Shown piece after piece: positions 3,687 to 31,094 of a DNA stretch of 32,000 nt (its first letter is position 1; each line of letters opens with the position of its first letter). This DNA is from Candidatus Thorarchaeota archaeon (GTDB lineage Archaea; Asgardarchaeota; Heimdallarchaeia; Hodarchaeales; Hodarchaeaceae): positions 77,923 through 109,922 of the forward strand of contig JBHLRO010000012.1 of NCBI GenBank assembly GCA_048882505.1, read 5' to 3'. The notes beneath the pieces were generated by a model. The model had not been told where the DNA came from. It worked only from the letters and a program-made list of their open reading frames with translations, and did not search any database. Position numbers and translations under genes: made by a program.

Positions 3687-5507
3687 TTACCACGGTTTTA
3701 CCAGCTCAGGCTGGATAACGGGATTCTCAAAAACCAATGTACCACGATAAGGATCACGTTTCCGTCTAGGACGTATTTTGACAATAGTACCGGAAGTAAT
3801 CATTAATTTCACGCTATCTTCGAGAACAGGTTTGAATCCACTGTCAAAAACGAGGTTCCAGGTTGAGTTGTTTCCTTCATTCCAAGCAATCAGATGAATT
3901 TCATCTCTTTCAGGTGAATCTATTAGATCTAAAACATGATAAAATCCTTTGAACTGCCTAGCTGGGCCTTCCTCCTCATCATGTGAATTAATTTCGATGG
4001 GAATCTCCTTGAGTAGAAGAGTCGGGATCCCACGTTTTGAATTATCTTTTGCTCTGTTTTTTAATTCCTTTTTAAAGAGATCTAGAACTTTCAGATCGAG
4101 TTCAACCAGATCTGGTCTGAGTCTCGAAAACACAAATAGTCGATAAAGAGACCTAGGCCCTTCTTCCGTCTTTTCAAAGTTTTTCACAACGAACTTGAGA
4201 ATTTGGATTGCCAGCTCACGCTGACCATGAGTATATAGGTCCACAGCATAAGTATGGACAGAAGAAAGTACCCCTTCAATCAGATCTGGATACCTTTTCA
4301 CCAGAACTGCTGCGTTATTCTCTTGTCCTATCGCAACAAGTGAAACAGCAAGTCCTAGAAGTTGGGTGGATGACAATTCAGGGTCCATTGCGGGAATGCT
4401 CTTAAAAAGAGATAGAGCTTGTTCATATTCCCCTAACAATAGATAGAGAAGTCCTTGTAACGAAATAACATTTTCGATGGCTTCCTTACCAACGGAGATA
4501 AAATTCATAAACACTCTGCATGCTTCGGCATGGACGAGCGCTTCAGTGACCTGATTTCGGGTTAACTTATAGTCTAGTAGCCAGGAGTGATGTTCAAATA
4601 GTTCTGAGCGCAGCATCCTCTCAACAATGACGCGTTGTTCAAGACTTCCGATCTGGTAAATTAGCTGTGAACTTGTTGCCAGGATTTCTGTAATTATATT
4701 TTCTGCCTCTTGGATGTTAAAACTTTCACGTGCATCTCTTGCTTTTATAACGAGCTGTTGAGCTACCAGCAATGCATCCTCAGGGGTGAGAATCTCTAAT
4801 TGGTTTTTAATGGGAGAAGATTCAGCGGATATAATGTCCCCTTTCTCCCCTTTGTCACCAGAACTGAATTGCGCAGCGGTTCGAACGAACCGGGCCGTAT
4901 CGCCCAGGTCCTTAATCAACATTGCTACATCAATATATCTTCTGGTTCGCTTTTTATAACTCCAAGAAGCGTGAAACACCCTTTCAACAGTTTTATCAAG
5001 TATCTGACGCATTTTTGGATCTTTAACGGATGCTGAGAGAACCGAGACAAAAGATCCACATGAAAGATGGTCAATTCCCCGAAAGATGGCATTTTCTTTG
5101 ATAATTCGGGCTACACCTTCGTCATCAGAAACACAGGCAACTTTGTTGTTGTCTATTAGTGTGAATTTTTTTGCCAGGATTACTACATCTATATCTGCTG
5201 GATCCTTGTCGGCCCTTACCATGTGCTCCTTTTGAGAGTATGCCGCAATTTGAGTCCAGAGGTTAGATTTTCGATTAACCGGTTCAAGTCTTACATATTT
5301 TGGTATACTGGTTCGCAGTTCCCGAAATTTCCCTGGAATGTCAGACTTAGGGATTTCTGCCGGGACCATGATTTCCATCCCTACGGATCGTGCAATCTCC
5401 TGCAACTTCGGTAAAAGAGAGTTGATGACACCGGCGTTTAATAGTGAGATGAAAAAATTGGTATCTATTACAACAATATCAAATACGGGCTTAGAATCAG
5501 CTGCCAT
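3687..5507 (-). CDS. PIN-domain protein with TPR-like helical region and beta-rich C-terminal domain
   Basis: VVIDTNFFISLL ... DPADIDVVILA ... VSDDEGV acidic PIN motifs. TPR-like LQGLLYLLLGEYEQALSLFKSI. Long clean ORF of 606 aa. Confidence 0.7.
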   Translation of the reverse strand: MAADSKPVFDIVVIDTNFFISLLNAGVINSLLPKLQEIARSVGMEIMVPAEIPKSDIPGKFRELRTSIPKYVRLEPVNRKSNLWTQIAAYSQKEHMVRADKDPADIDVVILAKKFTLIDNNKVACVSDDEGVARIIKENAIFRGIDHLSCGSFVSVLSASVKDPKMRQILDKTVERVFHASWSYKKRTRRYIDVAMLIKDLGDTARFVRTAAQFSSGDKGEKGDIISAESSPIKNQLEILTPEDALLVAQQLVIKARDARESFNIQEAENIITEILATSSQLIYQIGSLEQRVIVERMLRSELFEHHSWLLDYKLTRNQVTEALVHAEACRVFMNFISVGKEAIENVISLQGLLYLLLGEYEQALSLFKSIPAMDPELSSTQLLGLAVSLVAIGQENNAAVLVKRYPDLIEGVLSSVHTYAVDLYTHGQRELAIQILKFVVKNFEKTEEGPRSLYRLFVFSRLRPDLVELDLKVLDLFKKELKNRAKDNSKRGIPTLLLKEIPIEINSHDEEEGPARQFKGFYHVLDLIDSPERDEIHLIAWNEGNNSTWNLVFDSGFKPVLEDSVKLMITSGTIVKIRPRRKRDPYRGTLVFENPVIQPELVKPW

Positions 5508-5932: not shown

Positions 5933-6820
5933 ATGATGTCTACACAACGTCTGTTCGTTTACTCTCCCTCTCTTGATGGGGAATACGTCCCCATAAAGTT
6001 TAATCCTGAAAAAGATATGATCGAATCCGAAGTACTTATTTTCTTGGACGATGAGGAGCGGCAGATTTTTATCTGGACGGGGTCAGAAGCACCCGTTAGG
6101 AAGAGGTTTATCTCAAGCCAGATCGCTCGTCAAATGCGCCTCGAAAAGGGAATGACCTTTAGAGTTAGCACAGTTGACGAAGGTAATGAAACCAAAGAAT
6201 TTAATGCCCTGATTATGAGGATTGGCGCCGAAGGCATTAATCCAGGGCCGCTTCTGGAAGTTTCCCCGCCTCTTGGGGCTGCAGATCTTCCAGTACCCAC
6301 TCCTGATGATTTAAAACCATCTAAGAAAGATCGAAAGAAAAAGAAATCAAAAGTAACAAAGGCAAAGACTTTAGCTGCCCTAAGAACGCCAACCTCGTCC
6401 AAACAAGCACCTCCCTCATTTCAGACACCAATCATCTCTTCTTCGCCAACAGTTAGCTCGCTAGCTTCTATTCCGTCCTCAAGCAATTCCAGGGGTTTTT
6501 ATTATTCGGTTGACCAAGAGTCTGAGGTAACAAGAGATGAGGCTAAGATCATATTCCCTGCCGAAAGCCAAGATGTAATCTTTACAACGTTATTGGTATC
6601 TACTCCATCGGAAAGCGGAAAAATTGAATTTTTCTCTTTAGCTGGAAAATCAAAAACAATTGAAGTAGAAAAAACGGAGGATCCCTTCCTGGTCATATAC
6701 CTGACTCCCAAGGCACGTCCAGTTTATGAGCTAGATGATCTATATATTCCTATACCGAAAGGGAATTCTGTTTATCTCACATGTCCTTCTCAAACATTTA
6801 TAGGGATAAATTTGAAATAA
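5933..6820 (+). CDS. Gelsolin/villin-like domain protein (one gelsolin domain + Pro/Lys/Ser-rich linker + unknown C-terminal domain)
   Basis: EVLIFLDDEERQIFIWTGSEA...RVSTVDEGNETKEF matches the gelsolin-fold pattern (strand-D, I-x-I-W-x-G, [DE]-EG-x-E-x-x-EF). Confidence 0.8.
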   Translation: MMSTQRLFVYSPSLDGEYVPIKFNPEKDMIESEVLIFLDDEERQIFIWTGSEAPVRKRFISSQIARQMRLEKGMTFRVSTVDEGNETKEFNALIMRIGAEGINPGPLLEVSPPLGAADLPVPTPDDLKPSKKDRKKKKSKVTKAKTLAALRTPTSSKQAPPSFQTPIISSSPTVSSLASIPSSSNSRGFYYSVDQESEVTRDEAKIIFPAESQDVIFTTLLVSTPSESGKIEFFSLAGKSKTIEVEKTEDPFLVIYLTPKARPVYELDDLYIPIPKGNSVYLTCPSQTFIGINLK

Positions 6821-7023: not shown

Positions 7024-8337
7024 ATGAGTAAACAGAAGACAAGTTCGAGACTCTCTGGATTTTTCAAGCTGAGTATTGAAGAGCGTCAAGTAAAAATCCA
7101 AAATTTGTGTAACTTAACGAAAGATGAGATCGAGTATCTAGCTTTGTCCACGGCAACCTTGGATAAAGCAGGCAAAGGATATTACATCGAAAACCCGATC
7201 ACTGTAATGCAGGTGCCGCTTGGGATTGCTCCCAATTTCAGGATAAATGGAGAGGATGTGTTGGTACCAATGGCAGTGGAAGAAGCCTCGGTAGTTGCAG
7301 CAGCTGCGAATTCAGCTAAGGTTGCTCGGGAAAGTGGGGGATTTTCGACCAGCGCGACAGATCCTATCATGATCGGACAAATACAATTGGTTGAGGTACC
7401 TGATCCCTTTGCAGCAAAGGCAAAAATCTTGGAAAGCAAGCAAAAGATCGTTGAACTAGCCAACCAACAAGATCCAATGCTGGTGAAATTCGGAGGCGGA
7501 TGTCGAGATGTCAGGGTTAAAGTTCTAGAAGATACACTTCAGGGGCCTATGGTTATCACAGAACTTCTTGTAGACGTCCGGGATGCGATGGGGGCAAATG
7601 CCGTTAATACGATGAATGAAGCTGTCGCTCCTTTATTGGGTAATATTGCCGGAGGAAAACCGTTACTTCGAATAATTTCCAATTTAGCAGATAAGCGACT
7701 AGTACGTGCTACTGCACGATTTAAGGCAACTGAGTTGGCAACTGCGTCTCTTTCTGGAGAGGAAGTAGTCGAAGGAATTTTAAACGCGTACGCATTTGCT
7801 GATGCGGATCCTTACAGATGTAGTACACATAATAAGGGGATAATGAATGGCATTGACGCAGTCGCTCTGGCAACGGCCCAGGACTGGCGAGCGATTGAGG
7901 CAGGTGCACATACTTATGCAGCCATGAAGGTTCCTGGAAAATATTCGTCTCTCACAACCTGGGAAAAGGATTCAAACGGAGATTTAGTGGGAACTATTGA
8001 ACTCCCTCTTGCAGTTGGTGTGGTGGGTGGTATTGCCAGTATACATCCCCTAGCACAGATTTCGTTCAAAATCATGGGATTAAGCGTCCCTGGTGGTGCT
8101 CAAAAGCTTGCTGAGACCATGGCTGCCGTGGGGTTAGCCCAGAATCTTGGTGCACTTCGTGCTTTGGCCACTGTAGGAATACAGGCAGGCCATATGCGCC
8201 TTCATGCTAGAAATCTGGCCGCAAGCATGGGAGCTGAGGGCAATATTCTAGATAGGATCGTAGAGGAAGTAACAAAACAGAATATCAAGGTAACATTCGA
8301 TAACGTCAAAAAGATATATGATAAACTCAAAGACTAG
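7024..8337 (+). CDS. mvaA: 3-hydroxy-3-methylglutaryl-CoA reductase, class II (bacterial/degradative type)
   Basis: MAVEEASVVAA (catalytic Glu), DAMGAN, THNKGIMNG (catalytic Lys), GIQAGHMRLH (catalytic His). N-terminal SRLSGFFKLSIEER is typical of class II. Confidence 0.95.
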   Translation: MSKQKTSSRLSGFFKLSIEERQVKIQNLCNLTKDEIEYLALSTATLDKAGKGYYIENPITVMQVPLGIAPNFRINGEDVLVPMAVEEASVVAAAANSAKVARESGGFSTSATDPIMIGQIQLVEVPDPFAAKAKILESKQKIVELANQQDPMLVKFGGGCRDVRVKVLEDTLQGPMVITELLVDVRDAMGANAVNTMNEAVAPLLGNIAGGKPLLRIISNLADKRLVRATARFKATELATASLSGEEVVEGILNAYAFADADPYRCSTHNKGIMNGIDAVALATAQDWRAIEAGAHTYAAMKVPGKYSSLTTWEKDSNGDLVGTIELPLAVGVVGGIASIHPLAQISFKIMGLSVPGGAQKLAETMAAVGLAQNLGALRALATVGIQAGHMRLHARNLAASMGAEGNILDRIVEEVTKQNIKVTFDNVKKIYDKLKD

Positions 8338-9289: not shown

Positions 9290-9973
9290 TTAGAATTCCA
9301 GGATACCACGTTTTCTTAGTGTTTCTAGATCTTGGTCAGCTAGCTCCACGGGCAACCAACGGAATAGGCCAAATATCTCGGATTGACAATTTTTGTCCAA
9401 AAGAAAGAAACGATTTAGAAAATCAACCAATATCCTTCCAGTTGCCCCCCAAATCTCTTCTTTCTTATAATAAAAAAAGGGAACCAGGAATTTGTTTCCT
9501 TGCCATTCACGAGTTCTTAAAGTAAAGTGATCTGGATTGGCCAGATGGGAAACAGGAACCTCCAAAATATACTCAATCTCGTTATGATTAATATTTTTGG
9601 CTTTTACATCCTCTTCGCTTACCACCCCGACAAATGGGGTGACAATATATTGGCTAATCGTCAAAATGTCATTAATAGAGCCAATAATCTGGACCTCATT
9701 TATGCCAATTTCTTCATATGTTTCTCTAAGAGCAGTATGGACAACATTTTCATCTGATTCATCTAATCTACCTCCTGGGAAAGAGATTTGACCAGGATGA
9801 TTCCGTACATGCTCGGTTCTACGAGTAAATAGAAGATACCACTCATTTTTTCTTAAAAACAAAGGAATAAGTACTGCGGCCCGTTTAAATCCTTTGGGGA
9901 GAAGACCTCCAAGACGTTCCTCCTTATAGAGCACTCTACCAAATAATTGTAAGCATCTGGGGAGGGTCGCCAC
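9290..9973 (-). CDS. Nudix hydrolase, CoA pyrophosphatase (NudL/NUDT7/PCD1-like)
   Basis: AAVLIPL...LLFTRRTEHVRNHPGQISFPGG (CoA-Nudix motif) followed by the Nudix box ALRETYEEIG. C-terminal IWGATGRIL. Confidence 0.9.
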   Translation of the reverse strand: MATLPRCLQLFGRVLYKEERLGGLLPKGFKRAAVLIPLFLRKNEWYLLFTRRTEHVRNHPGQISFPGGRLDESDENVVHTALRETYEEIGINEVQIIGSINDILTISQYIVTPFVGVVSEEDVKAKNINHNEIEYILEVPVSHLANPDHFTLRTREWQGNKFLVPFFYYKKEEIWGATGRILVDFLNRFFLLDKNCQSEIFGLFRWLPVELADQDLETLRKRGILEF

Positions 9974-10110: not shown

Positions 10111-10506
10111 GTGGATGAGGAGTCGATACTGCCTTTCATTAATGTTTCTTATATGGACGTTCTTGAGTCTCTTGGTAGCCCAGAAAGTGTAATTAGGTTA
10201 CTAAAAACCAAGAAAATAAATCCAAAGGAGGCCGATTTTCTAGAAATTTTAGGTAGTTACATAAAGAGTCAAAATGAAACCATTTTAAATACCATACGAG
10301 ATTTATGTAACATACATTTTGGGGATCAAGGGGACGATGCATTCGAGAAGATTAAACGTTTTCTCGAAGGGCAAACCAGGGTTGCCTGGGTTATTTTCAG
10401 TCGACATTACCATAAAATCGATTTTGATGACCGTAACCCCCTCGAAGATTATCATCCCCGTATGTCAGAAGTCATTATTGTCCATTTCAAATACAAGGTA
10501 ATGTGA
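10111..10506 (+). CDS. Hypothetical protein (131 aa), first gene of a probable three-gene unit
   Basis: Protein-like composition. Its TGA stop overlaps the GTG start of the next ORF by 4 nt (GTGA). Confidence 0.6.
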   Translation: MDEESILPFINVSYMDVLESLGSPESVIRLLKTKKINPKEADFLEILGSYIKSQNETILNTIRDLCNIHFGDQGDDAFEKIKRFLEGQTRVAWVIFSRHYHKIDFDDRNPLEDYHPRMSEVIIVHFKYKVM

Positions 10507-12317
10507 ATGCCATGGGTTCTGAAAAGTGTTCTGCCCTAGCCAACGAGGCAGAAGCAGCTTCCAAACATTCGCTGGACATCGCTTCGAGTATTTATGAGGA
10601 AGCAGCAAGCTGTTATGATAAAGAAGGAGATAGACGTAAATCAGGTCAATTCCTGACGTTAGCAGGGGATCTGTTCCTTGAAATTAATAAGCATGATCAG
10701 GCTGCAACCTGTTATGGAAAAGCCATTTTACGATACCTGATGTCAGGGGATATTGAGACAGCCCAAATCCTCATAAATAAAGGCGGAGAATATGGCTTCT
10801 CCTCTGCGAACCACCATTATAGAATCGCGATTGATTCATTGGAACGGCGGAAGGAGACGAAATTAGAAACAGAGGCCGCATTAGAAGAAAGTACGGCTGA
10901 AGAATGGATGATTGAAGAGGAATCTCTTCCAGAAGTGGAAATCATGCCGCTCGACGATGAAGAGCAGTTGATTACCCTGGAAATGGATGATATTCTCGAT
11001 AAAGAGGATATTCAGATAAGGAAGCAGAATTTTGTCATCCCCCAGCTCGAAGTTGAGGATCCTTCGAGGGTGGGATCGTTTGCGGTTTTGGCTGCAGTTT
11101 CCCGAACTACTCGGGAATTGACCAGCCAAGACCAGCAGTTTATCCAAACCAATGCCGTGATACAGGATGCTTTAGGAGAGACCAAAATAATAGAACCGAA
11201 AATCACCATGTCACCAGTTAAGATAGCAGAAAGCGAAAGATCGGAGTTCTTTGAACTTTCCGAAACAATCACGACCGAAATCATGGGGGTTTCGTCTTTA
11301 GAGAATGAGGATTCAATAACAGATTCTTTAAATGGAACTTCAAACCTTGAATATCCTGATACATTAGATTTCGAGTATTCAGGAAAAACTGAGATTGTAA
11401 ACGAATATGCAGAAGAAATACATAACATTGAAGTAGTTGATACGATTCCCTTTCAGTGGCAGGTAATCGATGTTAAATCAGATTTTGATCTAGAGAAGAA
11501 ACACCGAACAAGTGAGGGATTAATCTATACATGGAAAAAAGATAGGATCTTACCTGGAAGAAAAATGGGAGTTGAATACACACTACGAAAACGGGTTGAA
11601 AGGTCAATTGTCCTGAGAAAGGAGAACCAAGTATCAGTGTTGAATCTTTATCATTCTGTTCAAAAGGATTTAAAAGCCCAAATGGAGTTTGTTAACACAA
11701 CGGGGAACTATTTCGAGGAAATTTTGATAGAAGATGTAATTCCGCCCGAATTGGTTGTGGTTCAGGCGACATCGGCTCAAGATATCAAACCAATTGCACT
11801 TCCAACTAATGATTCCACGTTATATCGATGGATTTTTAGCAGGTTACCTCCAGGTGAAACCTTTTCTGTAACCTACTTGTTTCGTGAAAAACCTATAACC
11901 AGATGGTATATACAGGAGATTGAATCTGAAAAAGGGATAGTAAAAGTAGAGAAGATTTCTCAACCTTTTGTTGATTCGAGACGATCCGAATATATCTGGA
12001 TGTATCGAATCACTAATCCGATTTTAGATGAACTGCATATCGATGACAGGATTCCAGGTGATTATGAGATTGCCCTTGTAGAACCACCTCATTTGAGACC
12101 TTCGTTAACCATGAATGGAACTCATAAGGTTCTTAGTTGGAAGTTACCTCAGGAGTCAACAAACGAAGTCGTATTGATTCGGATCTCTGGAAGCGAGTCT
12201 TTCACGCCCTTGGCGCCCGAAATTCATTTTTCACGGCTCGGAAAACCCCAGCTGGTTGAGAGAGGGGCTCAATCCCACCGAAAGGTAATCGATTTTCGTA
12301 AAATACAAGAAGAATAG
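10503..12317 (+). CDS. SNAP/TPR-like solenoid + acidic linker + three DUF11-like Ig-fold repeats
   Basis: N-terminal ASSIYEEAASCYDKEG...AGDLFLE...AATCYGKA (alpha-SNAP-type repeat pattern), a D/E-rich middle, and three repeats with D-x-IP...W cores. No signal peptide or TM segment. The start may be ATG 10512. Confidence 0.7.
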   Translation: MNAMGSEKCSALANEAEAASKHSLDIASSIYEEAASCYDKEGDRRKSGQFLTLAGDLFLEINKHDQAATCYGKAILRYLMSGDIETAQILINKGGEYGFSSANHHYRIAIDSLERRKETKLETEAALEESTAEEWMIEEESLPEVEIMPLDDEEQLITLEMDDILDKEDIQIRKQNFVIPQLEVEDPSRVGSFAVLAAVSRTTRELTSQDQQFIQTNAVIQDALGETKIIEPKITMSPVKIAESERSEFFELSETITTEIMGVSSLENEDSITDSLNGTSNLEYPDTLDFEYSGKTEIVNEYAEEIHNIEVVDTIPFQWQVIDVKSDFDLEKKHRTSEGLIYTWKKDRILPGRKMGVEYTLRKRVERSIVLRKENQVSVLNLYHSVQKDLKAQMEFVNTTGNYFEEILIEDVIPPELVVVQATSAQDIKPIALPTNDSTLYRWIFSRLPPGETFSVTYLFREKPITRWYIQEIESEKGIVKVEKISQPFVDSRRSEYIWMYRITNPILDELHIDDRIPGDYEIALVEPPHLRPSLTMNGTHKVLSWKLPQESTNEVVLIRISGSESFTPLAPEIHFSRLGKPQLVERGAQSHRKVIDFRKIQEE

Positions 12318-12434
12318 AAGGAGACCATACTAACGTCCGAATCGATAAATAAACCAGGTATAGATTTAGCTGTTCTGGCTGTCCAATGGGATGAAATTAG
12401 TGGCCCCTCCATTATTTCCCTGTTCCCTCCTTCG

Positions 12435-14264
12435 GTGCTGAAAGACCCGGAATCAGTGGCCCTACAGATATATTTAGCATCAGTAACAGTGTTTGGACAA
12501 CATGGCCAGTCACAAAGAACTGAATTCTCTGTTCCTTTACTAAGCCTTGGTCAGGACGTTATTGCTCGTGTTGCCTTTGATTCATGGGAAGATGCGGATA
12601 TTCGTGGCAAAGAGAGACCATTCTTTCTAGCATTCATTACTGGGGGTCAAACTAACGACTTATTGGGTCCTCATCTAGATATTAATATTTTCGATTATTT
12701 AAACCAACTTAAGACTAAGGAAACCAATTTTGTTGCCAAGGAAATTTGGACTGTGCTTTCTGAACGAGTTTTAACAAATGTTCCAGTTGAATCGATAGAT
12801 AATAAAGATTTATCATATGAGACTTACTCCATTAAGGATGCACTTCAAGATCTGAAAACAGCGCATGAAGCTTGGGATAAAACACAAGATAGAAACCAGT
12901 TGTGGACTGCCATACGCGTCGCAAATAAATTAGAAAACATAGATGACAATGCCGCCGGTCAGGCTTTCAATTTGGTTGGTACCATTTTCTTAGCTGGCAA
13001 GAACTACCACGAGGCCAAGGAGGCATTTGAACAGGCTACTAGTGCTTTTGGTCGTGCCCGTTTGTTCAATGATTCGGGCCAATCATCAGCATTAGCAGGA
13101 AAGTGTGCGTTTTATCTGGCTAATCTAGATGAAGCAATCGAATTTCTTCAGGGTGGAGTTCTGTGGGTAAAAGGAGAGGACAAACTTGCCTCGATTAATT
13201 TTGATATGGCAAGTGCATTGCATGCTAAAGAGCGATTCGAAGAATCCTATGTATATTTTGAAAAAGCAATCACCGCTGCCACGGGAGTAGATCCACACAT
13301 CGCAGCTGAATATTCTGCAACCTACGCTAGCAGACTTATGAGTCATGCGGATAGTGTAAGAAACAAGAATCTTACTCTGAGCCAAGATTTAATTAGACGA
13401 TCTGCAACCCAACGTGTCTCAGCAGCTCGCCTCTTATCCAAATCAGGAAACCCCCGTGAAGCAGCTAGTTCGTTAATTCTAGCGGGTAATGCGTTGCTAT
13501 CGTTGAAAGATATAAGGGAAGGATGCGATAAGTTAAGAGAAGCTGCAGATCTATTTATTGAAGCGAACGATTATTCTTCCGCTGCAAGGGCTTTATACAA
13601 TGGTGCCCGTAATATCAAGGATCCCAAAAGTTCTGACGAACTCCTTAGCAGAGCCATCAATCTATTGAAAGAGCATGAAACAGAGCAAAATTATCATACG
13701 TTGGGTCTCCTATTCTTTGAAAAGGGAAAAATCGAAACCAAGCGGCAGCAAATTGTCAAATCTATCCTATCTTTTGAACAATCATCCGAATTTTTGACTC
13801 AGGCCCAAATAAAGGGTATTGAACTCTTCTCCATATATATCCAATTGGCCAACAATCATTTCAAATTAGAATCCTTTGAACGAGCCGCATTATCATTTTT
13901 TAAGGCCCATAATTCCTTAGCGGAGGCACCTAGACGGGGAAACTTAGAGGATCAGTACCAAAAAGCGTTTCTAAATGGCTTGATAAGTTTACGTCGTGCA
14001 AGTACCGTATACCACAATGCAGGAATCGTGGCTCTTCAAAATAAGGAAGAAGGTCGAGCACTCGATTTGTTTGGTCGATCAATAGCATTACTTGTTGAAT
14101 GGGTAAGAAAAAACCGTTTGATGCATGAAGAAGAAGTCAAAAAGACAATATATGAACGTGTGGAAGCATTAGAGCTGAAATTAGGAATATTTGTCAAAGC
14201 TGAATCCAAATATAGGTTGAACGTTGAGATTTCAAGGTTAAAAAACGCAATGAAGTCTTTTTAG
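12435..14264 (+). CDS. Longin/uDENN-like N-terminal domain + TPR/SNAP-like alpha-solenoid (true start probably upstream, about 12327-12360)
   Basis: The in-frame upstream sequence reads IDLAVLAVQWDEISGPSIISLFPP, the typical first strand-GP-strand-P motif of longin/uDENN domains. The rest is TPR/SNAP-like helical repeats (e.g. REAASSLILAGNALL...REAADLFIEANDYSSAARAL). Confidence 0.7.
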   Translation: MLKDPESVALQIYLASVTVFGQHGQSQRTEFSVPLLSLGQDVIARVAFDSWEDADIRGKERPFFLAFITGGQTNDLLGPHLDINIFDYLNQLKTKETNFVAKEIWTVLSERVLTNVPVESIDNKDLSYETYSIKDALQDLKTAHEAWDKTQDRNQLWTAIRVANKLENIDDNAAGQAFNLVGTIFLAGKNYHEAKEAFEQATSAFGRARLFNDSGQSSALAGKCAFYLANLDEAIEFLQGGVLWVKGEDKLASINFDMASALHAKERFEESYVYFEKAITAATGVDPHIAAEYSATYASRLMSHADSVRNKNLTLSQDLIRRSATQRVSAARLLSKSGNPREAASSLILAGNALLSLKDIREGCDKLREAADLFIEANDYSSAARALYNGARNIKDPKSSDELLSRAINLLKEHETEQNYHTLGLLFFEKGKIETKRQQIVKSILSFEQSSEFLTQAQIKGIELFSIYIQLANNHFKLESFERAALSFFKAHNSLAEAPRRGNLEDQYQKAFLNGLISLRRASTVYHNAGIVALQNKEEGRALDLFGRSIALLVEWVRKNRLMHEEEVKKTIYERVEALELKLGIFVKAESKYRLNVEISRLKNAMKSF

Positions 14265-14297: not shown

Positions 14298-16526
14298 TCA
14301 TTCATTTGATGAACTAGATAGTCGTTCCCTTTTTTCGAGCAGTTTTTTTTCTTTGGTTTTAAGGCGACTTATCATGTCTGAATGTTTTTTACTGTCTATC
14401 TCATTTGCGAGGAATTTCTCATCAATTTTATCTATCGAAGTTTGGATATTCTCTAGGGCTTTATCAATTCCCTTGAGTCCTACATCGATTCCTTCAGTTT
14501 GGCGTTGGAAATCATCGCCATATTGAGACCCCTCTGGTTTGTGTAAGGCAGACCAGGTGATATCTATGGCTCGTCGCTTACTAGATTGCTTTTTAAGGGG
14601 AGGAGTGGGAGGACTGGGAGGGGACGGAGGCGTGGGTTCTCTTTTCCTTCTATCAGTTCTAAGACTTTTTCGAGATGAAGTATCTTCTAATGATTCGTCT
14701 TCTCCGATTATCCATCCTTTAGTTTCCCCTTTTAGCTCGGCCAGAATCACGTTAGGATCTTCTTGAAATATGGAGGTAATTCTTTCAGAGAATAAGGCAT
14801 TGAACCTTTCCTGATCCCGTAATATCTTTTCCCTGGCCTCCTCTAAGTTGATCTTTTCCCCCTCTTGGATATCTATACCAAAAACCCTGACCATTTCGCC
14901 TTGTGGCGTTTCTACAACACTTACAAAAGGCGTTCGAACAAAAGAATATTCTTTGGTTTCCAATACGGTCACGAATCCTCCAAAAATTCGAACAAAGCTC
15001 CCGATCCCCTTCATTTCAATTACCTTCACTGCTCCACCCAGAATGTTAACCAGTTCCAGATCACTTGACTCGAATACGTAAACTCCAGGCAATCGAACTA
15101 AAGAATAGTCTTTAGTTTCTCTTATTGCGTATTTAGAGGGGGTTGGATCTAAGACTGAAGAAAAGATGTCTCTAGGGCCCCTCCACTGTTTCAGGTTATT
15201 GAGAGCTGCTTCAGCCTTGTTAAAAACCTCCATAATATCCCCTATGCCAGCCATGCTTAACTCTTGATTTGTTAATTCATTCATATCTTTTGGATTCAAA
15301 TTAACACGAATATCCTCCCATTCCTCAGGAGGTAACCAAATCGTGGTCGTTCCCTCAACTTCTTGTGTCTGTGATTCTTGATTAGTAGAATCAGTTTGCA
15401 TTTCGGATTTACCCATTAGAACTACTGCGGTTCCTTTTTCCGTGACTGCAGGTACGGCTATTGTACCATGTTTTGCGGAAACTTTCGTCTTACCCTTGGA
15501 TACAAGGGTTAAACCGCCCGTAGGAATGGTATAGACTGTTTCTGGCTTGTGAAACTCGACCCCCTTGATATCTCGGGCAAAAGTCTGAACTCGTGAGGCG
15601 AGCTGACTAGAAGGGTCTATTTCTCTTCCTGCTCCAGAAATAGAACTCACCAGCGATTCAAAACGTGAGGCCGATTTCTCGCGGGGAGCGAGCGATAGAA
15701 TAATTCCAAAAATAATACCGATTAGTGATAGATATGAAAAAAAGTCGCGAGACGAGACAATCCAATTCGGTAACCACAGAAACAGCAATAGTAACAATCC
15801 CCCAGTAAAACAAGCATCACGAAACCGCTCCATCCTCGTATTCATTGCTGAATACTGTTCTAATATCGAACCAACGCTCATTGAGAGTTGTACAGGCGTC
15901 CTAGGAAGAAGAGTCCCCACTATAAACGATGCAAATCCTAAGAGAACAAAGAGCTCTTTTTGTAAAATCAGTTCTGTTGAGAATAGGTATATATTTCGAA
16001 AAATGAACAAAATTAAACATGAATGCCAGATTCCTTTTAGAATTCGGCTCAGATAAAAATCATATCCCAATTGTAAATTGGTGAACGAGAAAGAACCGAA
16101 GAAAACTGCCGCAGGGAGCATTAGGGCGATAAACAACCGTTCAAATTCGGCATAAGTAAGTGGAGAGATAAATGTATCGATTCCATGGAAAACAGGAGGA
16201 ACCTGTCCAGTAAATAAATCAATCAATAATAAGAAAACAACCGCCTTCATGGCCCTATTCACAGAGGTAGCAGCCATTCTTAGTTCCTTGGTTTTTAGCA
16301 GACGAACGTAAATAGGGATTAAAATATACAATCCTGAAGCAACCAGAAATAGAGTCACACGAAACTCTGGCTGAAATGCAAATAGTGTCGATGTAATGAA
16401 CCAAAAAACCAGGATTAAAAGGTATATCGAATCAAGAAAGGTTCTTGGACGAAGGAATTGTTCAGTCTGATCAAGTGCAAAGCTCTCAAGAGATGAGTAT
16501 TTTGAGAGGGAGTTTATATTCTTCAT
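14298..16526 (-). CDS. Hypothetical membrane protein: about 8 N-terminal TM helices, cytosolic domain with short beta-repeats, poly-proline stretch and C-terminal coiled coil
   Basis: Hydrophobic segments in aa ~30-280, repeats such as LVNILGGAVKVIE / FVRIFGGFVTVLE, PTPPSPPSPPTPP, and a charged heptad-like C-terminus. Confidence 0.75.
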   Translation of the reverse strand: MKNINSLSKYSSLESFALDQTEQFLRPRTFLDSIYLLILVFWFITSTLFAFQPEFRVTLFLVASGLYILIPIYVRLLKTKELRMAATSVNRAMKAVVFLLLIDLFTGQVPPVFHGIDTFISPLTYAEFERLFIALMLPAAVFFGSFSFTNLQLGYDFYLSRILKGIWHSCLILFIFRNIYLFSTELILQKELFVLLGFASFIVGTLLPRTPVQLSMSVGSILEQYSAMNTRMERFRDACFTGGLLLLLFLWLPNWIVSSRDFFSYLSLIGIIFGIILSLAPREKSASRFESLVSSISGAGREIDPSSQLASRVQTFARDIKGVEFHKPETVYTIPTGGLTLVSKGKTKVSAKHGTIAVPAVTEKGTAVVLMGKSEMQTDSTNQESQTQEVEGTTTIWLPPEEWEDIRVNLNPKDMNELTNQELSMAGIGDIMEVFNKAEAALNNLKQWRGPRDIFSSVLDPTPSKYAIRETKDYSLVRLPGVYVFESSDLELVNILGGAVKVIEMKGIGSFVRIFGGFVTVLETKEYSFVRTPFVSVVETPQGEMVRVFGIDIQEGEKINLEEAREKILRDQERFNALFSERITSIFQEDPNVILAELKGETKGWIIGEDESLEDTSSRKSLRTDRRKREPTPPSPPSPPTPPLKKQSSKRRAIDITWSALHKPEGSQYGDDFQRQTEGIDVGLKGIDKALENIQTSIDKIDEKFLANEIDSKKHSDMISRLKTKEKKLLEKRERLSSSSNE

Positions 16527-30482: not shown

Positions 30483-31094
30483 ATGACCGTACTCAAAATT
30501 GTATTGATTGGAGACGGAGGGGTGGGGAAAACCGCTATTCGTGAGCGCTATCTGGGAAAAGGCTTCAAGGCCCAATATCTTCTTACGATTGGGGCTGATT
30601 TTGCCATGCGGGACGATAACATAAATAGCCAAGCCGTTAGATTCCAAATATGGGATCTTGCAGGACAGCAACGATTTGATGCTGTCCGAGAGGTCTACTA
30701 TAAAGGATCAGTAGGTGCCCTCCTAGTGTATGATGTTACTCGCCCCGATAGCTATTTCAACACCCCCAAGTGGATTAACGAGCTATGGACAAATAATGGA
30801 CGGGGGCGTGTACCAATCGTCGTAGTCGCCAATAAGATCGATATGCGCGAACTATCCGATGACACGGTGTCATCGGAGCAGGGAAGGATCTTTACGGAGA
30901 GACTAACCAAGTTAACTGCCCCCGAAGGTTTTACGTGTCATTTCATTGAAACTAGTGCAAAAACAGGTGTAAATATCCAAGCTGCCTTCGCCCTACTAGG
31001 CTCGAATATCATGGCCTTTGTGGATAAACAGCGAAGGATGCGAAAAACTACCAGTCGAATCAGATCAACTATTCCTAGACAAAGACAGTTCTAG
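30483..31094 (+). CDS. Rab-like small GTPase (Ras superfamily)
   Basis: G1 GDGGVGKT, G2/RabF1 TIGADF, G3 WDLAGQQRF, RabF4-like YYKGSVG, RabF5-like LLVYDVT, G4 NKID, G5 ETSAKT. No C-terminal Cys. Confidence 0.93.
   Translation: MTVLKIVLIGDGGVGKTAIRERYLGKGFKAQYLLTIGADFAMRDDNINSQAVRFQIWDLAGQQRFDAVREVYYKGSVGALLVYDVTRPDSYFNTPKWINELWTNNGRGRVPIVVVANKIDMRELSDDTVSSEQGRIFTERLTKLTAPEGFTCHFIETSAKTGVNIQAAFALLGSNIMAFVDKQRRMRKTTSRIRSTIPRQRQF

Follow-up and report, generated by a model that had tools for sequence, protein, structure and literature searches.

The 32,000-nucleotide stretch of Hodarchaeales DNA analysed here (the window; contig JBHLRO010000012.1 of the Candidatus Thorarchaeota archaeon assembly GCA_048882505.1) contains three plus-strand genes, g1, g2 and g3, closely packed and co-directional according to the open reading frame (ORF) calls. 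Our best account of them, which we regard as having an even chance of being correct, is that their products work together as subunits of one cytoplasmic regulator, which controls a small GTPase of the Ras superfamily, probably an Arf- or Rag-like one, and is most likely of the GTPase-activating protein (GAP) type. The account is built on g3, whose N-terminal longin domain resembles those of the eukaryotic proteins FLCN, NPRL2, C9orf72 and SMCR8 and is followed by a long solenoid of tetratricopeptide repeats (TPR). Asgard archaea possess dozens of Ras-, Arf- and Rag-like GTPases, for which no native GAP or guanine nucleotide exchange factor (GEF) is known; a search for Asgard look-alikes of Arf GAPs and GEFs, published in 2025, found none convincing (PMC11914678).

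The longin domain was modelled with AlphaFold2 (AF2) from residues 15-160 of g3 (numbered here as in P0001), using an alignment of 30 orthologues. The model has a pLDDT of 87.5, and DSSP finds in it the longin order beta-beta-alpha-beta-beta-beta-alpha-alpha (strands 3-11, 15-22, 54-59, 67-77 and 85-95 of the model; helices 30-45, 96-123 and 126-136). The longin/uDENN-like domain proposed in the initial annotation, which was made from the sequence alone, is thus borne out as a longin of the uDENN/FLCN kind. Searched with VIA-align against 48,161 solved chains, one representative per PDB sequence cluster, the model has as its best match 8yqg, the longin domain of a Roadblock-Longin protein from Lokiarchaeota (Z 13.4; root-mean-square deviation (rmsd) 2.8 Å over 131 aligned residues), a dimer according to its PDB entry, with an identity of only 14% and an architecture, Roadblock plus longin, that differs from the longin plus TPR of g3. 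Next come FLCN (Z 10.9), Lst4 (10.8), NPRL2 (10.0), FNIP2 (9.1), C9orf72 (8.8) and a chain of the SEA complex (8.6). The longins of VAMP7, Sec22, Ykt6, TRAPP, the AP/COPI sigma and zeta subunits, Mon1-Ccz1 and BLOC-3, and Roadblock domains, mostly score Z 6.4-8.5, those of TRAPP lying at 6.8-8.1 and the sigma and mu longins at 6.4-7.7. The g3 domain is structurally nearer to the FLCN, Lst4, NPRL2, FNIP2 and C9orf72 longins than to most SNARE, TRAPP, adaptor and Roadblock ones; SMCR8 reaches only Z 8.0 in this search. Foldseek gave a similar set of neighbours: among PDB entries NPRL2 in GATOR1 and the Lokiarchaeal longin, both at E 2e-5, as well as DENND1; among Swiss-Prot models SMCR8 (E 7e-6), NPRL2, LST7, C9orf72, AVL9 and DENND6/11 (E 7e-6 to 7e-4). 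Clusters of the ESM Atlas that carry the NPR2 or Folliculin Pfam families, together with eukaryotic SMCR8, align at TM-scores of 0.67-0.76.

Two motifs of the domain point, as far as its sequence can be read, to GAP-type longins rather than to GEFs. The first is W-D-x3-G-P, of which G29-P30 stand at the start of beta2 in the model; the second is the R-G of the beta4-beta5 loop. Residues W24, D25, G29, P30, R96, G97 and R100 are invariant in 30 g3 orthologues. Across 26 divergent Asgard longins invariance is confined to the W, the D, the G of GP, P37, F87 and the G of RG (P37 and F87 being P23 and F73 in the numbering of that alignment), and the Arg of RG is kept in at least 90%. A profile of these 26 longins has human C9orf72 as its best PDB match, a marginal one (E 0.023) that covers the whole domain, and its alignment sets the W-D-x3-G-P of g3 on W33-D34...G38-P39 of C9orf72 with the same spacing. 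In the longin sheet beta1 and beta5 are antiparallel neighbours, which brings the loop with WD..GP next to the one with RG. By its position in the second loop R96 would be the equivalent of the arginine fingers of FLCN (R164), SMCR8 (R147) and NPRL2 (R78). The GP motif has been reported to be specific to the GAP longins C9orf72, SMCR8, FLCN and NPRL2, to be lacking in FNIP2, NPRL3, the adaptins, TRAPP and DENND proteins, and to lie where the beta1-beta2 loop ends or beta2 starts, with the arginine finger alongside; the same study noted that some Asgard longins carry the GP motif plus an arginine finger and treated their partners as an open question (PMC12290439).

That g3 handles a small GTPase is thought likely mainly because paralogous longins are fused to GTPases. 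The orthologue-only profile of the g3 longin finds, at E 1e-12 to 1e-16, proteins of 850-1130 amino acids (aa) from another Asgard family that consist, in order, of an Arf-type GTPase, a GP-longin, two to three PAS domains and, in all but one of the three proteins, a histidine-kinase ATPase (L047 2978-6361, L048 2190-4745, L049 2300-5203); genes for Rag/Gtr1-like or Ras-like GTPases adjoin them. The source genome has a longin paralogue of its own, a 299-aa receiver-longin protein with the motifs WDEAYGP...VRGGKR (L004, G000:C6:53366-56776), whose gene adjoins a histidine kinase and is convergent with a Ras-like GTPase gene, other Arf-, Rag- and Ras-like genes lying within 8 kb (G000:C6 47-56 kb). 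In the ESM Atlas a cluster of 274 Asgard GTPase-longin fusions aligns with the g3 longin model at a TM-score of 0.76. These paralogues agree with an earlier description of an "NPRL2-like longin fused to two-component domains" in Asgard archaea (Liu et al., bioRxiv 10.1101/2020.10.19.343400). The published Asgard longins of FLCN/SMCR8 type and NPRL2-like type (10.1101/2020.10.19.343400; PMC12290439) belong to the same sequence family as g3, whose orthologue profile picks up the receiver-longin and Arf-longin-PAS-kinase proteins at E 1e-8 to 1e-16, and share its GP and Arg features; longins of this class are thus already in the literature, and the g3 family may overlap with them.

The initial annotation had also pointed to a Rab-like GTPase gene 16 kb away. 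The window does contain a Ras-family GTPase gene (30483-31094). Candidate substrates in the source genome (4.32 Mb in 83 contigs, 94.6% complete) are some 12 loci of Arf type, some 10 of Rag type and 51 of the Ras family; with 51 of the latter, a distance of about 17 kb or less to either side is expected in roughly a third of cases, and we dismissed this gene as evidence of partnership. The link itself remains plausible through the fused and adjacent GTPases of the paralogues.

The locus recurs throughout those genomes of its order that were searched. In a survey of 301 sampled genomes of the phylum, the two families of the order had g3 orthologues in 20/20 and 2/2 of their members (22/22 Hodarchaeales), and the other families of the class in none (0/29, 0/11, 0/1, 0/3, 0/11). 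Both g1 and full-length g2 occur in 19/20 and 2/2, the single miss being a genome only 74% complete. Homologues of g1, g2 and g3 stand side by side, by NCBI locus tags, in several metagenome-assembled genomes (MAGs). A complete 4.9-Mb relative (L001) has the whole neighbourhood in identical layout, and a MAG whose proteins are 31-39% identical (L002) keeps g1-g2-g3 adjacent and co-directional while both flanks differ; the triplet is thus syntenic in relatives even at that distance.

Beyond the order the parts are found in other combinations; judged from sequence comparison, some of them predate the order. The g2 triple beta-sandwich recurs (23% identity over 321 residues) in proteins of about 525 aa from other families of Heimdallarchaeia, encoded directly 3' of a tightly coupled gene of 201-206 aa; hhalign (probability <1%) led us to reject the latter as a relative of g1 or of the g2 head. 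In a further family, which lacks a g3-like longin, a g1-like gene directly precedes a g2-like gene with SNAP-like head and DUF11 repeats. Genes of 589 and 616 aa beside the g2-like pair of G144 were tested and are not g3-like. g1 adjoins g2 in L001, L002 and L040. Yet another Asgard family (L044 1122-12073 = L041; G282) has a run of co-directional genes of 767, 770, 656, 682 and 690 aa, in which the 770- and 656-aa products are g2-like and the 682- and 690-aa products are longin-TPR proteins like g3 (L044 7941-9989 and 10001-12073); two further assemblies have the same. The pairing of g2-like with g3-like genes therefore recurs outside the order. In G282 the 690-aa protein carries WDDELGP and IRGG, and the 682-aa protein has WD..GS and Asn-Asn in place of Arg-Gly. 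By analogy, this Arg-plus/Arg-minus pair of longins, seen in one species only, recalls SMCR8/C9orf72, FLCN/FNIP and NPRL2/NPRL3. The 767-aa protein of the run has a Pfam match to the adaptor medium-subunit family that stays below threshold (16 bits at E 0.007, where the cut-off is 31.6).

On the reading that we prefer, g3 would be the active subunit, its longin belonging to the structural class of the catalytic longins of FLCN, NPRL2, SMCR8 and C9orf72. As in relatives of this fold, it may pair through the edge of its beta-sheet, probably with a second copy of itself: a single g3 chain carries both the C9orf72-type WD and the putative SMCR8-type Arg, which suggests that two like chains pair, rather than a catalytic and a non-catalytic one. 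The beta1-beta2 loop with W-D-x3-G-P and the beta4-beta5 loop with R-G would be presented to the nucleotide pocket of the GTPase, where Arg96 would act as an arginine finger and speed GTP hydrolysis. A scaffold would be formed by the TPR/SNAP-like g3 solenoid together with the SNAP-like g2 head, the acidic linker and three DUF11-type sandwiches of g2 might recruit a further partner or surface, and g1 could be a small accessory subunit tied to g2. The eukaryotic complexes C9orf72-SMCR8(-WDR41), FLCN-FNIP and GATOR1 (NPRL2-NPRL3-DEPDC5) have the same longin fold and are the nearest eukaryotic structural neighbours of g3, C9orf72 sharing the W-D-x3-G-P spacing besides; they differ in that a DENN half takes the place of the TPR/SNAP-like solenoid of about 480 aa after the longin, and in their partners, WDR41 or DEPDC5 as against a SNAP-like/DUF11 protein and a 127-aa orphan. 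A bolder version, unlikely to be right as a whole, would make g3 a surviving single-chain form of the ancestor of these eukaryotic longin GAP complexes: a homodimer with C9orf72-type WD..GP and SMCR8/FLCN-type finger, serving in Hodarchaeales as a native GAP for Arf/Rag-like GTPases on a scaffold of SNAP-like/TPR and sandwich domains, with the Arg-plus/Arg-minus pair found elsewhere as the first step to the catalytic/non-catalytic heterodimers of eukaryotes.

Several points weigh against a GAP. Platforms built of longin or Roadblock domains act more often as GEFs, or as scaffolds that bind a GTPase passively. At the loci examined (L001, L002) there is no GTPase gene within or beside the g1-g3 operon. 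The orthologue-only longin profile finds no PDB match up to an E-value of 10, nor any meaningful one in Pfam, and a comparison with NCBIfam gave only noise; besides the marginal profile match to C9orf72, identity to eukaryotic longins is 12-18%. The DENN half common to all eukaryotic GAP longins is missing from g3. Equating R96 with the finger of FLCN draws on its loop position and on an R-G-x-x-R stretch that FLCN presumably has, and no tool alignment sets R96 on the fingers of FLCN, SMCR8 or NPRL2; the single tool alignment that bears on this column puts R96 opposite an Asn of C9orf72, a pairing consistent with C9orf72 being the finger-less partner of SMCR8. The roles given above to g1 and g2 are guesses. 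Two Asgard candidates for C9orf72-SMCR8-like proteins, which may or may not belong to the g3 family, were judged to be without the Arf-contacting regions (Zhu et al., PMC11914678).

Of the alternatives the one that survives best, though we consider it fairly unlikely, keeps the GTPase and drops the GAP: g3 would be a platform for nucleotide exchange, as are DENN, Mon1-Ccz1, TRAPP and Ragulator, or a docking site that reads the nucleotide state, g1-g3 then being an effector or scaffold. Longins of GEFs and scaffolds do match the g3 model, DENND1 by Foldseek and CPLANE, Mon1-Ccz1, BLOC-3, Ragulator and MglB at Z 7-8.5; the position of the paralogous longin between an Arf-like GTPase and PAS-histidine-kinase modules suggests signal relay; and TPR solenoids and beta-sandwiches are typical binding modules. 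The DENN Rab GEFs, the model for one analogy drawn in the initial annotation, show where this alternative falters. Their uDENN resembles the g3 longin, with DENND1, DENND6, DENND11 and AVL9 among the matches, but they are built as uDENN-cDENN-dDENN and g3 has the uDENN-like longin only: a Pfam scan found no DENN match after it, neither cDENN nor dDENN, and the TPR follow instead. In DENN GEFs it is cDENN that makes most of the contacts with the Rab (DENND1B-Rab35 structure). The nearest eukaryotic structures are, moreover, longins of GAP complexes, not of GEFs, and an Arg kept in at least 90% in the loop beside GP fits a finger. A GP motif reported as specific to GAP longins and absent from those of DENND, TRAPP and adaptor proteins (PMC12290439) argues in the same direction. 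The DENN GEF analogy is not supported.

The initial annotation was correct about the layout of the genes, three on the plus strand with a 4-nucleotide (nt) overlap of g2 (GTG start, 10503) with g1 and an in-frame junction between g2 and g3; its start for g3 had to be moved. The ORF listed for g3, 12435-14264, is too short: once the frame is carried back to the TAG at 12315-12317, 98% of it is covered by 57 homologues, and their N-terminus, MDLTILAV.WDDISGPS, aligns to window position 12360. At that position the codon, ATA in the window, is ATG in 10 of 13 relatives examined, ATA in one other species (G241) and TTG in one, which suggests that g3 is initiated at ATA or by re-initiation after the g2 stop 42 nt upstream. 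The closest public relative of g3 is likewise annotated short, from MQIYLAS. Since relatives carry g2 and g3, here in one reading frame, as separate genes with stops that may be TAA, TAG or TGA, read-through of the TAG is not needed; the relatives' g3 genes also have their own ATG, and a g2-g3 fusion protein made by read-through is ruled out. Database relatives of g2 start at a position corresponding to ATG 10512, which would give 601 aa, and those of g1 are about 127 aa long and begin MPFIN..., aligned to 10129. The absence of transmembrane segments noted initially was confirmed for all three products, in which no 19-residue window has a Kyte-Doolittle mean >1.2; g2 has neither a signal peptide nor a transmembrane segment, and no membrane anchor or amphipathic signal was found in g1-g3. 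Coordinates are collected in the table.

Table. Positions in the window of g1, g2, g3 and their parts
Feature	Position	Strand	Details
g1: cytoplasmic orphan protein of 131 aa; opens the operon	10111..10506	+	GTG start
g2: SNAP-like TPR domain, acidic linker, three DUF11-type beta-sandwiches	10503..12317	+	604 aa from GTG 10503
g2 N-terminal helical-hairpin domain, SNAP-like	10503..10847	+	residues 1-115; invariant Cys C9, C37, C70
g2 acidic linker	10848..11348	+	residues 116-282; motifs LPxIxILP, FxIPQLE, SFAVLAAVS
g2 C-terminal triple beta-sandwich, DUF11-type	11349..12314	+	residues 283-604, 322 residues
g3: longin-TPR protein, about 634 aa	12360..14264	+	ATA 12360 where relatives have ATG
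g3 longin domain, FLCN/NPRL2/C9orf72/SMCR8 type	12360..12767	+	P0001 residues 15-150; AF2 model, Foldseek, VIA-align
W-D-E-I-S-G-P motif, end of beta1/start of beta2	12387..12407	+	P0001 W24 to P30
R-G of the beta4-beta5 loop, candidate arginine finger	12603..12608	+	P0001 R96-G97; loop by DSSP
g3 TPR/SNAP-like alpha-solenoid	12810..14261	+	P0001 residues about 165-648; about 480 aa

The solenoid of g3 matches the Pfam families TPR_8, TPR_12, TPR_2 and SNAP (PF14938), the last with 29.0 bits (cut-off 25) along positions 22-208 of the 282 in the profile. In a PDB profile search the earliest natural proteins include Sec17 and alpha-SNAP (E 6e-5), preceded by designed TPRs and a bacterial kinesin-light-chain-like protein and followed, at E 1e-4 to 1e-2, by an archaeal TPR sensor, APC subunits, Rap phosphatases and LGN; the Atlas neighbours of the solenoid are bacterial TPR proteins, some of which also match Pfam SNAP. 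Because the SNAP model also picks up bacterial TPR proteins, the match is a likeness of repeats, not orthology. Helical-hairpin repeats like those of alpha-SNAP/Sec17 are indeed present in both g3 and g2, but g3 has twice the length of SNAP plus a longin and other TPR families score similarly. The term SNAP-type solenoids, used initially, is fair for the repeats and is not evidence of a SNARE-related role.

For g2, Pfam, composition and an AF2 model upheld the three-part structure initially described, a SNAP/TPR-like part, an acidic linker and three Ig-like repeats, the last modelling as beta-sandwiches. The head has a repeat signature in common with the g3 solenoid; it matches Pfam SNAP under the cut-off (E 0.0017, 18.4 bits), and its sequence matches in the PDB are alpha-SNAPs only, weak ones (E 0.05-0.14). 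Its cysteines C9, C37 and C70 (window 10527-10712) are accompanied by a nearly invariant H22, a set whose conservation in the sequence may reflect a metal site. The linker is 24% D+E, with a net charge of -27, and sets conserved short motifs amid variable columns. The C-terminus was modelled as all-beta, three sandwiches, at a pLDDT of 79.2, and its first two units resemble each other significantly (z 8.7 relative to shuffles). Compared by Foldseek with AlphaFold Database clusters, the sandwiches find many DUF11 proteins, the best named one at E 5.9e-7; eight of the ten top rows are at E <=1e-5, the first being an unnamed 521-aa protein (E 2e-11). Pfam DUF11 (PF01345) scores 12.9 bits with g2, below its cut-off, and 26.5 against 24.6 bits with the g2-like relative in L040. 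g2 thus shares the fold of DUF11/CARDB-type repeat proteins, to which it adds a TPR head and an acidic linker; DUF11 repeats usually occur in secreted or surface proteins. Comparison with solved structures gave Foldseek TM-scores of at most 0.26 and, with VIA-align, assorted beta-sandwiches at Z <=7.5. Mu-homology domains match the third sandwich at Z 6.3-7.5, a background level that VIA-align marks as uninformative, and no TRAPPC8-11, adaptin-ear or ASH chain was among the matches listed by Foldseek and VIA-align. As modelled, the sandwiches show no specific tie to adaptor ears, mu-homology domains or the ASH domains of TRAPP.

The product of g1, the 131-aa unknown of the initial annotation, matches no Pfam or NCBIfam family. 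Feature matches to annexin in the Atlas (0.79) are below the noise level of the tool, and the Atlas model is poor (pLDDT 0.47). Its profile, run against 1.84 billion representatives, collected 21 clusters, nearly all of stand-alone proteins of 120-150 aa; two long matches (1093 and 380 aa) were judged spurious, being repetitive proteins matched over a short helical stretch. Prediction of a complex of g1 with g3 (634 aa) plus residues 1-215 of g2 scored 0.00, which is evidence neither way.

These data can also be read as those of a lineage-specific cytoplasmic scaffold with no relation to GTPases, engaged for example in lipid or envelope biosynthesis or in signalling, in which the longin would bind a small ligand or a protein as PAS or GAF domains do and the TPR and DUF11 parts would bind clients. 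We find this quite improbable. It would account for an operon that has no GTPase gene and for the g1-g2-like pair that lacks a g3-like gene in one family. LOV and PAS domains do appear among the weaker Foldseek matches of the g3 longin, but at low probability and high rmsd. Genes of isoprenoid-lipid metabolism are nearby twice: HMG-CoA reductase, which both in L001 and in the window (7024-8337) lies two genes upstream of g1, and a geranylgeranyl-reductase-like gene adjoining that of the 525-aa triple-beta-sandwich family in two genomes (L037 5846-9503; L038 4730-8318); this neighbourhood of g1-g3 and of the 525-aa family may be due to chance. Conservation of the motifs, and the repeated fusion or adjacency of such longins to Arf-, Rag- and Ras-like GTPases, favour a GTPase link instead.

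The remaining analogies of the initial annotation, to TRAPP and to AP/COPI adaptors, would make the locus an early coat or tether, acting in tethering or cargo sorting at a membrane, in which the longin would stand for the small subunit, the solenoids for the trunks and the linker for a hinge before Ig-like appendages, and the SNAP-like solenoids possibly touch the SNARE-like proteins of Hodarchaeales. The inventory of domains is superficially parallel, alpha-SNAP/Sec17 are among the best natural PDB sequence matches of both solenoids, that of g3 exceeding the Pfam cut-off, and mu-homology domains recur among the background matches of the third sandwich; Hodarchaeales SNARE homologues are also described as forming complexes in vitro. 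Compared part by part the likeness has little in its favour. TRAPP has Bet3-family core subunits with TRAPPC2/C4-type longins, not found among the window ORFs scanned, and large subunits of alpha-solenoid plus ASH/Ig-like domains, where g2 has a short TPR head and three sandwiches; AP/COPI complexes combine a HEAT/ARM trunk with sigma/mu longins and an ear, where the solenoids of g2 and g3 are TPR. With TRAPP and adaptor longins scoring below GAP-type ones, solenoids that are TPR rather than HEAT/ARM and whose SNAP likeness is shared by bacterial TPR proteins and nearly equalled by other TPR families, sandwiches that match DUF11 far better than anything eukaryotic, no Bet3, TRAPP, adaptin or coat gene among the window ORFs scanned with Pfam, and no membrane anchor, we regard such a coat or tether as highly improbable.

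Relative to the Asgard longins already published, what appears to be new here is the fusion of longin to TPR, the order-wide three-gene operon and its duplicated version in another family; none of the three is mentioned in the literature searched, a search that did not extend to the sequence list of PMC12290439. The locus adds to the Asgard GAP-type longins an order-wide member with defined candidate catalytic residues and candidate partners, and since g1-g3 are short and soluble they should be expressible and assayable against the GTPases of the same genome. If active, they would tie the eukaryotic GAPs of lysosomal nutrient signalling and of Arf to a prokaryotic complex, and would also show the origin of the catalytic/non-catalytic longin pair; if inactive, they would caution against reading function from longin likeness.

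On one side of the operon is a NUDIX gene in divergent orientation (9290-9973, minus strand), on the other a convergent gene for a 742-aa membrane protein (14298-16526, minus strand). The N-terminal half of the latter protein is hydrophobic and multi-pass; besides this it has a Pro/Ser-rich stretch and a tail of coiled-coil-like character, and it belongs to no Pfam family; 33 nt separate its stop codon from that of g3, and a 753-aa gene occupies the same place in L001. Two further minus-strand ORFs, 5933-6820 (295 aa) and 3687-5507 (606 aa), had no Pfam match at the thresholds used.

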